Shown here in pieces: positions 43,938 to 53,006 of a stretch of DNA of 64,000 nt (the stretch's first letter is position 1; each line of letters opens with the position of its first letter). The position numbers were made by a program, and so were the translations under genes. The stretch is from Candidatus Aminicenantes bacterium (GTDB lineage: Bacteria; Acidobacteriota; Aminicenantia; Aminicenantales; JAFGBC01): positions 2,496,001-2,560,000 of the forward strand of contig OY969696.1 of the NCBI GenBank assembly GCA_963702005.1. Direction: 5' to 3'. The notes beneath the pieces are model-generated. The model saw only the letters and a list, made by a program, of their open reading frames with translations, ran no database searches and was not told where the DNA came from.

Positions 43938-48021
<4,084 letters not shown>

Positions 48022-48240
48022 TTGTCTATTTTTAACAAAAACACCCCGCCTTGTCAATTTGGCCGGGGGCCGGAGAAGGTATTCCGCCAAAAACCGCCCG
48101 ATCGGGTTGTATCCCTTTTTTAATTTTCCCGTGATAGTCGACCGAACGAGTCTCATATTCCTGCAGGAACTGCTTGAGATGATGGAACAGCACTCGATAG
48201 AGGACGGTCCGCGCCTAGGCTTACCTGAGCCCGTAAAATC

Positions 48241-48270
48241 TTGACAAAAGGCTTAATCTGTAAGCATAAT
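48241..48270 (+). promoter_or_regulatory. sigma70-like promoter for the LTA-synthase-family gene
   Basis: TTGACA-18 bp-CATAAT. Confidence 0.6.
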
Positions 48271-48357
48271 CACCGAATAAGTCAAGGCGAGCAATGGAAA
48301 TGCCAGACAGTCATGTGACCAGCGGTGTCCGGTTTTGAAGCATGATAAGGGAAAAAA

Positions 48358-50529
48358 GTGTCAAAAGAAAAAACGGTTTTTCCTTTTGTGCTCATCACGT
48401 TCTCCATTTTCCTTCTATTCTTCCTCAGCATAAGAATTTATCTCGTTTATTCAGGAAATGTTCCAGGAAGCTTCTCGTTTTCTGAAGTCCTGGCCGGTTT
48501 CCTGGAAGATGTTTTTTTGGCTTCCGCCTTGTCTCTTTCAACCCTTCTGACGCTCTCCCTAAGCAAGGCCCTCTATCTTCTGCTCGTTTTTCCCCTGAAC
48601 TTGATCGTCGTCATAACCTGCTATGCAAACCTCCAGTATGTGAATTTTTTTGGAGAAAACCTCGCGTTGTTTGATCTTGAATATATCAGGAACCTCGGCA
48701 GCGTCTGGAAATTTTCGTTGAATCACATTTGGATTCGACGGGGAGAACCCTTCTTTCTCATCCTGCCCCTTTTAGCGATCTTGGCCGAGCTTGTTGTATT
48801 GCTGAAAACAAAGATCAGAAAATATCCGGCGGCGAAATTTCTGATTTTATCATCGGCCTTGCTCGGCCTTTCGCTAGCGACATTTTGGGGAGGAGAAGCC
48901 CTGGCCAATAAAGAGAATAAACTGGGTTTTCATCAGAACAATTATTTTGTGGAGATGATCAAGGGGATCCCTCGTCTTCGTAATTTCATCAAGGCTCGCC
49001 AGGATATCAAAAAGCTTAAAATAATAGCCAAGGAGCAAGAAACGAGCCCGGGTCATCAGGAGGCGTTGAATCACAATCACGAAGAATTGAGCCTGGGAAA
49101 ATTATATCTGAAGGAACGACCCGTCCCTCTTCCCGAGGATTATGTTTGGTATAGTGAAAATTATCCTTTTATCAAGATTCCCAGAAGAGACGCCGTCCGT
49201 ATGGGTCTTTTATCCGGAGGCGAAGAGGCCGATAGGACGGCCTTCCGCACTCCAACCAAGCTTGTCCGCAACGTTGTTTTTATTTTCATGGAAAGCTTCC
49301 GCTCCAAAGAGATCGACCTGTTTGGCAGCCCTTATTCTCTGACCCGTTCGCCGACGCTAAGCCCTGCCTTTCAAGGCGGGGATGAGAAGCGAGGCTCAGG
49401 GTTAACCCCTAACAAGCCCCGGCCTTCAAGCCGGGGAGTCGAGGGGTTGACTCCTAATTTTGACGCTCTAGCTTCTAAGGGTATTTTATTCAATAATTTT
49501 TATGGACATTCCGATTTAACCGCCGGCGCGGAGTTCTCAACGATATGTTCCTTCTATGAAGTCTTCAAAGGAATCGATGCCATGAGGGGTCATCCCCAGG
49601 ATGCCCTTTTTTCTTTGCCGGAAATATTGAGTCTCCTCGGATACACAAATTACTGGATCAATTCCTGGTCGGCCGATTTCGATAATTCCAGGAATTTTTT
49701 CAGCCTCCATGGCAATTTCCAGTTCGTCGATAAATATGCTTTTCCCCTGAATGCAGCGAAGGCGGGGGGGCATTATGATGATGAAGAAATTATGAAGATG
49801 GCCGTCGAAACTATGGATAAAGCCCGGAGACCGTTTTTTGCCATGATCTTGACGGCCACCAATCATATGCCCTACCGGGTGCCGGAAAAGAAATTTGAGC
49901 TCGGGCTGGGGGACGGTCTTTTCAGCCGCTATTTGGACACCTTTCATTATTCAGATTACGCCTTGGGCCGTTTTTTCGAGCTGGTTCGAAACAAAGATTA
50001 TTTCAAGAACACCCTTTTCTTTGTATTCGCGGACACGGGCGATAATCGATCGATCAAGGCCATGAAATCGCTCCCTGAGTACTTCGAGAATATTTATCAT
50101 ATTCCCCTTCTGATCTATGATCCTTCGGAGGAAACAGGAAGGGTCGTTAAGGAAATCGGCGGCCAGGTGGATATCGCTCCGACCGTTTTGGACCTGCTGG
50201 GGATACAAATCGCCACTCCTTTTGTCGGGCAAAGTCTGTTGCAGAAAAGAATGACTCCCTTTTATTTATCCTATCACGGCCGGGACAATCCCTCCGTATT
50301 TTTTTCTAGTGAATCTTTGCTCTTACGCTATAACCTTGAAAATGAACAGTGTGAGGCATTTGATCGGAAGAACGGCGAAAGAGTCGATTTAAGCCCGAGC
50401 GAACGCCAGAAAATTATTTCCACGATCAGGGAGATGGTCACATTGGGGGATTGGTCATTTTTTAATGACAAGATCTGGGATCCCAAAATCAATCAATTTT
50501 ACAAGAACCTCTATAAAAAAGGCTCCTAG
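48358..50529 (+). CDS. LTA synthase / phosphoglycerol transferase (sulfatase superfamily) with a 36-aa in-frame insertion
   Basis: About 5 N-terminal TMs; NVVFIFMESF, TPNFD.L, catalytic Thr in DLTAGAEFS, TNHMPY, YSD..LG, QVDIAPT; lower GC than flanks. Confidence 0.85.
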   Translation: MSKEKTVFPFVLITFSIFLLFFLSIRIYLVYSGNVPGSFSFSEVLAGFLEDVFLASALSLSTLLTLSLSKALYLLLVFPLNLIVVITCYANLQYVNFFGENLALFDLEYIRNLGSVWKFSLNHIWIRRGEPFFLILPLLAILAELVVLLKTKIRKYPAAKFLILSSALLGLSLATFWGGEALANKENKLGFHQNNYFVEMIKGIPRLRNFIKARQDIKKLKIIAKEQETSPGHQEALNHNHEELSLGKLYLKERPVPLPEDYVWYSENYPFIKIPRRDAVRMGLLSGGEEADRTAFRTPTKLVRNVVFIFMESFRSKEIDLFGSPYSLTRSPTLSPAFQGGDEKRGSGLTPNKPRPSSRGVEGLTPNFDALASKGILFNNFYGHSDLTAGAEFSTICSFYEVFKGIDAMRGHPQDALFSLPEILSLLGYTNYWINSWSADFDNSRNFFSLHGNFQFVDKYAFPLNAAKAGGHYDDEEIMKMAVETMDKARRPFFAMILTATNHMPYRVPEKKFELGLGDGLFSRYLDTFHYSDYALGRFFELVRNKDYFKNTLFFVFADTGDNRSIKAMKSLPEYFENIYHIPLLIYDPSEETGRVVKEIGGQVDIAPTVLDLLGIQIATPFVGQSLLQKRMTPFYLSYHGRDNPSVFFSSESLLLRYNLENEQCEAFDRKNGERVDLSPSERQKIISTIREMVTLGDWSFFNDKIWDPKINQFYKNLYKKGS
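49340..49451 (+). mobile_element. Miniature TGAC-bounded element, long form (net 108 bp), copy C, in frame inside a CDS
   Basis: TGAC at 49340 and 49448; hairpins CCCTGCC-TTTCAA-GGCGGGG and CCCCGGC-CTTCAA-GCCGGGG; central GGGTTAACCC palindrome; GC-rich patch in an AT-richer gene. Confidence 0.85.
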
Positions 50530-50556
50530 AGATTTCCGTTTTCAGGGAGGATTAGA

Positions 50557-51609
50557 GTGAAAACTTTGATAAGATTCCTGACCGTGGCCTTAATGGTTGC
50601 GGCCCTGGCCGCCCAGGACGTTCGGCCAATCCGCGATGATGTCGGCTTTTGCTGGAACCCGGCCAGCATGCAAAAGCTCGTGGACTATCTCCAGTGCGAG
50701 GAGAAAGAGAGCTATGAAGCCGAAGGACTGCTGGCCGCCATTGTTCCCCATGATGATTACCTCTACGCCGGCCGCGTGTACTATCCGCTGTATAAGGTTT
50801 TAAGGGCCAAGGAAGTCGTCATCTTCGGAGTTACCCACGCCACGGTCCGCAAGGAGATCGGCGACCCGCACAACATCCTGATCCTGGACGAGTTCAAGCT
50901 CTGGCAGGGCCTGAACGAGCCCCTCGCCATTTCCGAACTTCGGGAATACCTGAAGGAGCATCTGGATAAGTCGACTTATTTGGTCAACAACAAAGCCCAG
51001 ACCATCGAGCATTCGATCGAAGCTCAGGTCCCCTGGCTCCAATATTTCAACCCCGGCATCAAGATCACGCCGATCATGGTCACGGGCATGCCCTTCGAGA
51101 AAATGGACGAGGTCTCAACAAAGGTCGCAGAAGTCATCGCAACCTACCTTAAAGAGAAAGGACTCGTCGCGGGCAAAGATGTTTTCTTTTTGATCTCGTC
51201 CGACGGCAATCATTATGGCCAGGACTTCAACAACTCACCCTTCGGCGAGGGCGAGCTTGCCTGGAGAACGGCCCGGGAGCTCGACCAGAGGATCATCCGT
51301 GATTATCTGACGGGCATCATGGATAAGGGCAAGGTCGAGGGACTGACCAAGGAACTCTGGGGCAAGACCTATCTCGATTATCGCAACACCTACTGGTGCG
51401 GCAAATACTCGATACCCTTCGGCCTCCTGGCGACCCAGAAAATCATCAACCTGACTATGAACAAAAAAATCGGCGGAACGCTGTTCCGGTACTCCGATAC
51501 TTACAACGAGGGCGTGTTACCGCTGACAAAGACCGGAATGGGAACGACCGCGCCCTTCTCGCTGCGCCACTGGGTCAGCTTCTGTTCCATAGGATATTAT
51601 TTAGAGTAA
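50557..51609 (+). CDS. MEMO1 family (AmmeMemoRadiSam protein B-like) protein with a signal peptide
   Basis: IVPHDDYLYAG, GVTH, EHSIE.Q.PWLQ, ISSDGNHYG, WCG. Confidence 0.82.
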   Translation: MKTLIRFLTVALMVAALAAQDVRPIRDDVGFCWNPASMQKLVDYLQCEEKESYEAEGLLAAIVPHDDYLYAGRVYYPLYKVLRAKEVVIFGVTHATVRKEIGDPHNILILDEFKLWQGLNEPLAISELREYLKEHLDKSTYLVNNKAQTIEHSIEAQVPWLQYFNPGIKITPIMVTGMPFEKMDEVSTKVAEVIATYLKEKGLVAGKDVFFLISSDGNHYGQDFNNSPFGEGELAWRTARELDQRIIRDYLTGIMDKGKVEGLTKELWGKTYLDYRNTYWCGKYSIPFGLLATQKIINLTMNKKIGGTLFRYSDTYNEGVLPLTKTGMGTTAPFSLRHWVSFCSIGYYLE

Positions 51610-51689
51610 AAAGCAAATTCCCGGTCGTACGCTTTCTCGGGTTGAAAAAGAATAAGCTGCCGGCTGAACGCAATAAAGGGATCAAAGAT

Positions 51690-51760
51690 TTGTCCTTTGT
51701 CGGGCTGGCCGTACTTCCCTATGAAGCGGCCAAGGCCGTTTGGTATCTTCTGAGCCTTTG
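51690..51760 (+). repeat. Orphan 71-bp duplicate of an internal segment of the GT87 gene (54411-54481)
   Basis: 66/71 identity by manual alignment; encodes FVGLAVLPYEAAKAVWYLLSLC. Confidence 0.85.
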
Positions 51761-51884
51761 CCTCGATTTTTCAATTCGTTGACATTTCCAATCGGCCGAT
51801 AATATATTAGGAACGACTCAGGCAACCTGAATACCGAGTTCAAAGAGATGAATTTATTGCTATGATAAATCGGAGGAAACAGCG

Positions 51885-53006
51885 ATGAAAGTCCCATTTT
51901 ATGGTCACGTGAGACAGTACCAGAGCATCAAGAACGAAATTGATGCCAAAATACAGGATGTCATTATGAGCGGCCAGTTTGTGCAGGGCCCCATGCTGAA
52001 AAAGTTCGAAGAAGAGCTTGCGGCCTATGCAGGCGCCAAGTACGCCATCGGCGTCGGCAACGGCACCGATGCCCTCTGGCTCACCTTCATGGCTCTGGGC
52101 CTGGGCCAAGGCGATGAGCTGATTACCAACGCCAATACCTTCTTTGCGACCGCAGAAGCGATGTGGATCGCCGGTTGCAGCGCCGTGCTGGTTGACTGCG
52201 ACCCGAAGACCAAGTGCCTCGATCCGGAAGCGGCCCGAAAAGCGGTCAGCAAGCGCACCAAGGCCATCGTGCCGGTTCACCTGTATGGCCAGTGTGCTCC
52301 GATGCGCGAGATTCGCCGGATTGCCGACGAATACGGCCTGTTCATAGTCGAAGACAATGCTCAGGGCATTGACGCCCACGGCGACGACTTCAAGATCGGG
52401 GAGCTCTCAGATGCCGTCACCGTCAGCTTCATCATCCAGAAGAACCTGGGCACCTTCGGTGACGGCGGCGCGATCTGGACGAACCATAAGTCTATCGACG
52501 ATAAGGTCCGCAAATTGCGCAATCACGGCTCCGCTAAGCGGGACGTGCACAGCTATGGTTTCAACAGCCGTCTGGACGACCTGCACGCCGGTATCCTGAG
52601 CGCGAAGCTCAAACATATTAAAGAGTGGAGCGACCGCCGGATCGATATCGCCAACAAGTTCACAAGCGGCCTAAAGGACTGCGCCTTTCTCGACCTGCCG
52701 TACATCCGGCCGGGCTATCGCCATGTGTTCCACCTGTACGTGATCGAAACCAAGAATCCGGCCGATCGCGACAAGCTGCTAGACTGCCTGGTCAAGAACG
52801 GCATCGATGCCAAGACCCATTACTCCATCGCAATTCATCGTCAGGATGGTTTCCCCTGGGGCAAGGATGCGCGCCTGGCCGGACCCCTGACCCATGCGGA
52901 AAAGAACGCCGCCTCCTGCATTTCGCTGCCGATGTTCCCGGAATTGACGGAAGAGGAAATCCAGTACACTATCCAGGTCGTTCGCGACTGGGCCAAGAAC
53001 AAGTAA
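51885..53006 (+). CDS. DegT/DnrJ/EryC1/StrS aminotransferase
   Basis: NGTDAL, PVHLYGQ, VEDNAQ, SFIIQKNLG (PLP Lys), GFNSRLD, HVFHLYV, SLPMFP. Confidence 0.92.
   Translation: MKVPFYGHVRQYQSIKNEIDAKIQDVIMSGQFVQGPMLKKFEEELAAYAGAKYAIGVGNGTDALWLTFMALGLGQGDELITNANTFFATAEAMWIAGCSAVLVDCDPKTKCLDPEAARKAVSKRTKAIVPVHLYGQCAPMREIRRIADEYGLFIVEDNAQGIDAHGDDFKIGELSDAVTVSFIIQKNLGTFGDGGAIWTNHKSIDDKVRKLRNHGSAKRDVHSYGFNSRLDDLHAGILSAKLKHIKEWSDRRIDIANKFTSGLKDCAFLDLPYIRPGYRHVFHLYVIETKNPADRDKLLDCLVKNGIDAKTHYSIAIHRQDGFPWGKDARLAGPLTHAEKNAASCISLPMFPELTEEEIQYTIQVVRDWAKNK

Follow-up and report, generated by a model that had tools for sequence, protein, structure and literature searches.

Within a 64,000-nucleotide (nt) stretch of a Candidatus Aminicenantes genome (positions 2,496,001–2,560,000 of a single 4.31-Mb contig; this whole stretch is called the window here), a gene for a membrane-anchored, LtaS-like sulfatase carries an in-frame insert of 108 nt. 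We describe this insert as one copy of a dispersed and probably mobile repeat family. The features of the locus, in window coordinates, are as follows.

48358..50529, + strand: host gene, an open reading frame (ORF) for a membrane-anchored LtaS-like "sulfatase-like hydrolase/transferase" of 723 amino acids (aa) with N-terminal helices
49339..49343, + strand: target pentanucleotide CTGAC, host sequence directly 5´ of the element (family consensus TTGAC), placed by the left-boundary counts
49344..49451, + strand: element proper, 108 nt or 36 codons, encoding TRSPTLSPAFQGGDEKRGSGLTPNKPRPSSRGVEGL plus shared boundary residues; absent from 14 homologues and related to 100 loci
49342..49402, + strand: predicted closing helix of the left domain, ACCC 49342–49345 with GGGT 49399–49402, from a single-strand DNA fold
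49362..49381, + strand: hairpin 1, the left subterminal palindrome, with a 7-base-pair (bp) GC-rich stem (49362–49368/49375–49381) and a 6-nt loop
49402..49450, + strand: outer stem around hairpin 2, 49402–49409 with 49443–49450, overlapping the terminal TTGAC
49417..49436, + strand: hairpin 2, the right subterminal palindrome, with a 7-bp stem (49417–49423/49430–49436) and a 6-nt loop
49447..49451, + strand: element-borne terminal TTGAC

The gene product has Sulfatase (PF00884) as its sole Pfam match, over residues 304–616 (1.8e-42), with no intein domain, and the insert, at about residues 329–364, falls inside this domain. Its nearest relatives in the PDB include 3lxq and the LtaP/LtaS structures 4uop, 2w8d and 2w5q. 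E312 and T388 are invariant in an alignment of the host protein and its homologues (15 sequences); by analogy with LtaS they would be the metal-binding Glu and the Thr nucleophile, and the insert lies 17 residues past this Glu, within the catalytic domain. As the original prediction, made from the letters alone, had read it, the TGAC at 49340–49343 recurs at 49448–49451 with a spacing of 108 nt, and the ORF 48358..50529 stays open through the insert and encodes the 36-residue peptide.

That the 108 nt were gained is seen from empty sites. All 14 full-length homologues of the sulfatase (44–68% identity, 674–720 aa) lack exactly the 36 residues, with both flanks conserved, and the solved relatives (3lxq and the LtaP/LtaS structures) are gap-free across the insertion point. 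A second copy in this genome (G000 in the comparison with 40 relatives) splits the Pfam profile of an LpxR protein, a profile that runs uninterrupted through the orthologues from the two genomes of the same genus; compared with these empty sites, the G000 DNA has acquired exactly 108 nt behind ATGAC. A third copy lies in an S9-peptidase-like protein of 1728 residues, the orthologues of which in G004, G012 and G018 are without the corresponding 36 residues. Between genes, an empty site in G001 reads TTGACA, 17 nt and CATAAT, with a single TTGAC, and G000 has 108 nt right after that TTGAC, such that the arrangement is regenerated. The original prediction had looked to an alignment of orthologues for the empty site; once run, it shows homologues and orthologues lacking exactly the insert, with no homologous 36-aa loop in the distant ones, and both empty sites and further copies exist.

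The insert had also been called a GC-rich patch, which is true relative to the host gene (45–49% GC) but not relative to the genome (60.4%). Window positions 48000–52000, comprising the sulfatase gene and its downstream neighbour, have 45–53% GC inside a genome of ~60%. A close orthologue of the sulfatase gene was not found in the 40 relatives (best 29–30% identity). This suggests that the low-GC stretch is a horizontally acquired island that was entered later by a resident repeat.

The repeat family and its predicted single-strand fold

Searched with BLAST and with an nhmmer profile of 34 copies, the 4.31-Mb genome G000 gives 121 hits that merge into 100 loci, 44 of them full length. Homology among the copies runs from the T of the left TGAC (49340) to the C of the right TTGAC, and metagenome contigs diverge into many different flanks exactly at 49340 and at 49451/49452. 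The family falls into subfamilies of 108, 107 and 106 nt, the 107-nt class being the commonest (16 of the 44 full-length copies) and the 108-nt class accounting for 12. Recent amplification is suggested by six copies that are identical. Some copies have an additional hairpin-1 module or another hairpin in the middle, and by its sequences the family is modular. In the variants at G000 1964233, 2678905 and 3822333 and at locus L112, the left end and the final bases on the right side are retained, and hairpin 2 with the outer stem gives way to a longer, unrelated hairpin.

The element is found in 7 of the 41 genomes (G000 and the 40 relatives), in four genera and three families, and also in several metagenome-assembled genomes titled "Candidatus Aminicenantes". 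An exact 17-mer scan of species-representative genomes, which is not a census, gives at least 116 stretches; among the matches listed, 11 loci are real copies by nhmmer and the others are chance matches in GC-rich genomes. Some insertions are old, because one copy is common to G000 and G001, which are two species. Tandem arrays of 2–3 left-end hairpin modules with ~85-nt spacing, reminiscent of clusters of repetitive extragenic palindromes (REPs), occur at G025:C3:25225-25449 and G005:C5:228090-228239.

The two hairpins, of the motif AAGCCC..TTCAAG..GGGG, are present at 49359–49381 and 49414–49436, where shuffled sequence would be expected to give 0.02 in the window. They form a 24-nt direct repeat, 55 nt apart. 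The left boundary is 18 nt away from hairpin 1 and the right end 15 nt away from hairpin 2, and pairing is kept across 39 copies in 265 of 272 cells for hairpin 1 and 257 of 271 cells for hairpin 2. The predicted single-stranded DNA fold consists of two adjacent imperfect hairpin domains (z-scores -3.3 and -4.4), each capped by a 7-bp GC stem, and the element boundaries are the bases of these two domains. The columns of the left-domain closing helix are nearly invariant, which makes covariation uninformative there either way. On the right, the arms 49401–49410 and 49442–49451 are 90% complementary. Over 21 distinct arm combinations, the longest Watson-Crick run of the outer stem has a mean of 5.7 bp with the arm's own partner, compared to 3.6 bp with swapped partners, and by our own count and reading the arms occur in ~8 sequence versions, each keeping a 5–6-bp Watson-Crick run. 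This implies that the outer stem, next to the putative right cleavage point, is maintained by compensatory changes, and because of this covariation the element would have a functional single-stranded form.

Terminal inverted repeats (TIRs) were not found in the element: in 34 aligned copies the left end and the reverse-complemented right end mismatch. The pairing of the two element ends with each other, proposed from the single copy, is not conserved, and the commonest subfamily has a changed right end that is unable to pair with the unchanged left end. The central palindrome GGGTTAACCC does exist, but it is subfamily-specific, and each half pairs on its own, one with the left boundary and the other with the bases ahead of the right TTGAC. 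No Rfam family reaches its gathering threshold for the element; the best matches, at 11–15 bits against thresholds of 44–90, are at chance level.

Boundaries, orientation and mobilisation

Among the 74 loci whose left end is intact, 49 have TTGAC as the pentamer at this boundary and 12 more have NTGAC (61 of 74), the rest being other variants. On the right, 65 of 72 copies that retain this end finish in TTGAC. The asymmetry between left and right fits a target supplied by the host at the left and a site borne by the element at the right. No target preference beyond the pentamer is seen at positions -12 to -6.

The cumulative GC skew of the genome has its minimum at ~0.5 Mb and its maximum at ~2.75 Mb. 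Element orientation follows replication in 88 of the 100 loci, with "+" between the skew extremes and "-" elsewhere (86 of 100 with the terminus set at 2.75 Mb), and also at 14 of the 17 loci where element and downstream gene differ in orientation; genes as such are co-oriented with replication in only 54% of 3248 crudely called cases. A resident insertion sequence (IS) of the IS200-like type obeys the same rule, with six "+" copies at 0.72–2.08 Mb and five "-" copies at 2.58–3.78 Mb. The orientation of the element and of the IS200-like copies switches near 2.575–2.65 Mb, compared to a peak of cumulative GC skew at ~2.75–2.8 Mb, and the terminus is imprecisely placed.

One alternative is a conventional cut-and-paste miniature inverted-repeat transposable element (MITE), moved by a DDE transposase, with the two TGAC motifs being a duplicated, preferred 4-bp target. 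TGAC or TTGAC does stand at both boundaries of most copies, the empty site has one copy of the motif where the filled site has two, and left and right tetramers mismatch in 5 of 34 cases, which is not above the general divergence between copies. Yet such a transposase would find no TIRs to bind, the replication-linked orientation would be unexpected, and the constancy of the right TTGAC next to a variable left pentamer, as well as a structured helix maintained through compensatory change, also speak against it. We consider this alternative unlikely.

The pattern is closer to that of elements that move as single strands. Passages in PMC5027513 and PMC7290912 describe IS608 as having a preference for the lagging-strand template and as inserting 3´ of a tetra- or pentanucleotide without duplication; IS200/IS605 elements and their ends-only derivatives, the palindrome-associated transposable elements (PATEs), are described in the same passages as lacking inverted repeats, carrying subterminal hairpins and sharing the lagging-strand-template preference. 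Of the mechanisms considered, we favour mobilisation as a single strand by an enzyme of the HUH/Y1 type, with moderate confidence from the sequence comparisons. The element would transpose as single-stranded DNA into the lagging-strand template, with an HUH/Y1-type enzyme acting in trans as for IS200/IS605 derivatives and REP elements. It sits directly 3´ of (T)TGAC and carries its own TTGAC at the right end. The original prediction of a non-autonomous mobile mini-element inserted in frame is borne out by the ~100 loci, the exact empty sites, the absence of TIRs, the fixed left motif and the orientation tied to replication, and the precedents it named, substrates of Y1-HUH transposases and Rickettsia palindromic elements (RPEs), both fit the behaviour of the element as analogies.

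Candidate enzymes are encoded in the genome. The IS200-like IS is present in 11 near-identical copies (97–99.5%) of ~610–680 bp with a 150-aa Y1 transposase (L043–L052, e.g. L044:1339-1951), all outside the window; TnpB (PF07282) was not found in the genome. Three further ORFs, R1, R2 and R3, resemble REP-associated tyrosine transposases (RAYTs).

Several observations count against single-strand mobilisation as described, or against its known agents. A cognate transposase for the element was not found in this genome and the 40 relatives. The resident IS200-like IS was rejected as parent, both for its ends, with other hairpins, a different right end and a target of ~TTG, and for its lack of co-occurrence with the element: searches did not find it in the element-bearing G005 and G025, and it is present in G010, G011, G017 and G019, in which the element was not found. 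The three RAYT-like ORFs score 61–79 bits against the 80-bit cut-off of NF047646. No Y1 gene is flanked by the element; around the three RAYT-like ORFs, the 3 kb on either side are free of copies (best nhmmer E-value 0.18). Orthologue searches with each of the three in the 41 genomes revealed no RAYT-like clade confined to genomes with the element: G001, G005, G013 and G025 gave no hit for R3, and R1 and R2 occur widely in genomes that yielded no element copy. With neither a nearby element nor a co-occurring clade, these genes were rejected as linked mobilisers. An IS608-style pairing of the cleavage sites with guide bases directly 5´ of the hairpin feet is not evident on inspection, and a 4-bp TGAC target-site duplication is equally compatible with the boundary repeats, the right end also being TTGAC. 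Finally, the strand and context counts rest on our own crude gene caller.

Three of the 11 IS200-like copies are located in the loop of another palindromic repeat of ~42 nt, and two more adjoin only its right half (L044:1295-1338, 1952-1976; flanks of G000 2614818 and 3781633). This palindrome could represent another family of hairpin repeats, used by the IS as a target.

Copies within genes and the fate of the sulfatase insert

The three genic copies (sulfatase, LpxR and S9-like) are all 108 nt long, lie in the phase xTG|ACC and are read in the same peptide frame, LT...GLT. This frame is open in all 12 full-length 108-nt copies, the other sense phase meets a TGA within the element, and the 107-nt class is not seen inside genes. 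Only the 108-nt subfamily in the xTG|ACC phase gives an open frame, and these are the copies that survive in genes. A search of a 5.8-billion-protein set, confined to proteins of 397–1266 residues, places the same peptide inside four more unrelated predicted proteins (P0034–P0037), namely a histidine kinase, an FAD-oxidoreductase-like protein, a DUF2079 protein and an unknown secreted protein; one protein with the element peptide is attributed by NCBI to "Candidatus Aminicenantes".

The sulfatase copy would have entered the loop between the first β-strand, with the metal-binding ES motif, and the TPN helix, and would be translated as an extra hydrophilic loop of 36 residues that the enzyme tolerates. 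Both junctions between host sequence and insert are covered by contigs of a ~97%-identical strain, assembled from the wetland metagenomes of two studies (X1 records 1 and 8; X3 records 18 and 23; X2 record 16). Because this strain carries the insert, the insertion is older than the ~3% divergence between the strains. The differences listed between the strains, which lie on both sides of the insert and leave out 28 further ones, change 33 codons, 21 of them synonymously and 12 nonsynonymously, with 0 stops. In an AlphaFold2 model, residues 320–363 form a coil with a predicted local distance difference test (pLDDT) score <50, between the strand 306–312 and the TPN helix 366–372. Of the fates considered in the original prediction, the tolerated loop is the one favoured by retention in both strains, the share of synonymous codons, the open-frame class and the unstructured coil of the model. 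From sequence and model together, the insert is very probably a translated and tolerated surface loop. This conclusion is weakened by the incompleteness of the codon list and by the fact that no single metagenome contig covers the whole insert; moreover, a low pLDDT is to be expected anyway for an insert not covered by any homologue, and the model is mediocre overall, with a mean pLDDT of 67.

Alternatively, the insertion may have inactivated the gene, with the open frame reflecting a young pseudogene that is yet to decay. The position of the insert, 17 residues past the metal-binding Glu in the catalytic domain, would agree with this, and many paralogues in the genome could compensate for a loss. 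However, strains ~3% apart both keep the insert and the frame, with 21 of the 33 listed codon changes synonymous, and all three genic copies belong to the sole open class of length and phase, which argues for selective filtering. We consider inactivation quite improbable.

The insert could also be lost before translation, either from the DNA of some cells by precise excision or from the RNA. The element is highly structured, and Y1-type elements are described in part of PMC5027513 as excising precisely, with restoration of target and flank. Removal would require neither the 108-nt length nor an open frame, yet the three genic copies have both, and the commoner 107-nt class is not seen in genes; neither an Rfam match at the gathering threshold nor a Pfam intein domain is present. 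To our knowledge, all known self-splicing introns are longer than 108 nt. The empty-site joint was not seen in four DNA runs, all of them assembled contigs, which drop rare variants. Neither route of loss has any support from these data, and we regard removal as very unlikely.

Long ORFs across other copies were set aside as candidates for further genic insertions; these are mostly upstream extensions in which the Pfam domain starts after the element (MiaB-like, GNAT, PAS kinase, URO-D and G001 C281), or they are without a Pfam match. A few copies are located at ORF termini (L068, G000 559660-560460; L061, G000 1953694-1954488; L201, G001 C467), at the C-terminus of a HAD protein, the N-terminus of a GyrI-like protein and the C-terminus of a G001 radical-SAM/DUF2344 protein. 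These terminal copies may be extensions of real proteins or mere untranslated flanks.

Promoter context, related elements and meaning

By our own gene calls, which missed the low-GC sulfatase gene itself, 87 loci lie between genes, 10 overlap a gene edge by 2–4 nt and three are inside called genes. At the ten edge loci (e.g. 727598, 1234562, 1823260, 2463759, 3413524 and 4201219), the insertion sits exactly at the end of the upstream gene with its stop unchanged, because the TGA stop lies inside the left TTGAC. The nearest downstream gene is co-oriented with the element in 83 of the 100 loci.

The pentamer TTGAC forms the core of the promoter -35 box. A TATAAT-like hexamer (at least 4 of 6 matches) follows the terminal TTGACn at a distance of 16–18 nt in 40 of 65 copies; by the same test, 10.8% of all 9429 genomic TTGAC sites and 38.4% of the 1731 intergenic ones have such a -10 box (Fisher p = 2.5e-4 for element copies against the intergenic sites). 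At the G001 empty site, the promoter-like -35/-10 pair predates the insertion. The element regenerates the -35 core on insertion, and promoters would therefore keep their -35/-10 geometry; this probably accounts for the location of most surviving copies just upstream of co-oriented genes.

These same features could indicate that the family is mainly a regulatory module of the host, placed upstream of promoters or downstream of genes and distributed by selection for such a role. It might be a protein-binding site, an insulator or a hairpin that stabilises mRNA, with the genic copies being accidental. Besides the co-oriented downstream genes and the -35 position taken by TTGAC in 40 of the 65 copies (38% for intergenic TTGAC sites), ten copies abut an upstream stop codon and at least one insertion is common to two species. 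Against this, the excess over intergenic TTGAC sites is modest, the promoter-like pair of G001 was already present before insertion, and the family behaves as mobile DNA does, with six identical copies, exact insertion polymorphisms and a patchy distribution. Regulation and mobility are mutually compatible; as the main nature of the family, we find a regulatory module highly improbable.

A more far-reaching and tentative version of the single-strand account is a transposon that homes to promoters. Its GTTAA-containing centre would serve as guide for both TTGAC boundaries, the -35 core on the lagging-strand template would be targeted and rebuilt, promoters of co-oriented genes would be colonised at low cost by means of an unlinked RAYT-like enzyme acting in trans, and the element would be a recurrent donor of 36-residue loops to Aminicenantes proteins.

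Comparison with known systems gives partial matches. As PATEs are characterised in excerpts of PMC7290912 and PMC5027513 (IS200/IS605 derivatives that retain only the ends and depend on TnpA in trans), the element shares with them its short length, non-coding origin, lack of TIRs, subterminal hairpins, lagging-strand-template orientation and a left end 3´ of a fixed tetra- or pentanucleotide. It differs from PATEs in that no resident IS shares its ends and that the same pentanucleotide is present at both boundaries, and from IS608 in having a canonical antiparallel helix with the bases next to the right cleavage point instead of four-base guide pairing.

With REPs, REPINs and RAYTs, as outlined in portions of PMC3733652, the element has in common that it is an abundant, mostly intergenic hairpin repeat with occasional genic copies in a genome that encodes RAYT-like Y1 proteins. 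It further resembles REPs and REPINs by persistence in lineages, one insertion being common to two species. In contrast to the inverted modules of REPINs, the two hairpin modules are direct, the RAYT-like genes are not flanked by the element, and there is a defined target with exact empty sites. On inspection, neither of the tags GTAG and CGTC, as defined in those portions of PMC3733652, abuts the element stems, which are preceded by AAG (TA in one subfamily) and followed by A(T/C)GAG or AGTCGA. The same source reports, in part, that REPs occur in genes and that CGTC-type REPs have no linked transposase. The element is like these CGTC-tagged REPs in having no dedicated adjacent transposase in a genome with RAYT and IS200 enzymes and in having some intragenic copies; it is unlike them in being longer and two-domain, with a defined target and without CGTC at the stem.

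RPEs, as presented in sections of PMC10969869, are likewise found in frame in unrelated genes, where they add a conserved peptide and are apparently tolerated; here this concerns three genes and four predicted proteins elsewhere. The likeness is one of behaviour, and only about 4 of the 100 element loci are genic, whereas RPEs are often so. In addition, the host of the element belongs to a free-living environmental phylum, and its target, its strand bias and the reason for its frame compatibility can be stated. The same sections describe in-frame fusions via small intragenic repeats as not unusual, RPEs being the extreme case, and promoter-bearing MITEs (Correia elements and others), which the element resembles in lying directly upstream of genes with a sigma-70-like -35 box at its end. 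In contrast to Correia-type MITEs, the element supplies only the -35 core, has no TIRs and, at the single locus analysed for this, takes the place of an identical -35 box that was already there, such that a promoter is preserved and none is created.

In conclusion, the insert is probably a copy of a ~108-nt non-autonomous Aminicenantes mobile element that is moved as a single strand, preserves promoters on insertion and forms a tolerated loop in the sulfatase. In-frame behaviour of repeats is already known in other bacteria. What is new is a family in an uncultured phylum with a two-domain, direct-repeat architecture, a TTGAC at both target and terminus that equals the -35 core, and a countable reason for its genic class. 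Literature searches on TTGAC as a Y1 transposase target and on Aminicenantes repeats and transposases, the latter judged by title and abstract, gave no description of this family.

The 36-residue patch is the footprint of a mobile element and not an error of assembly or annotation, and it becomes possible to recognise "LT...GLT" patches of this kind in Aminicenantes proteins. The family raises the question of which Y1 enzyme recognises its ends. It also offers a countable example of why repeats end up in frame, with one length class (108 nt) and one phase. If the single-strand mechanism is true, REP- and PATE-like elements reach into a barely studied, uncultured phylum. With the -35 core both as its target and as its own terminus, such an element can occupy promoters without breaking them, which is a low-cost niche.

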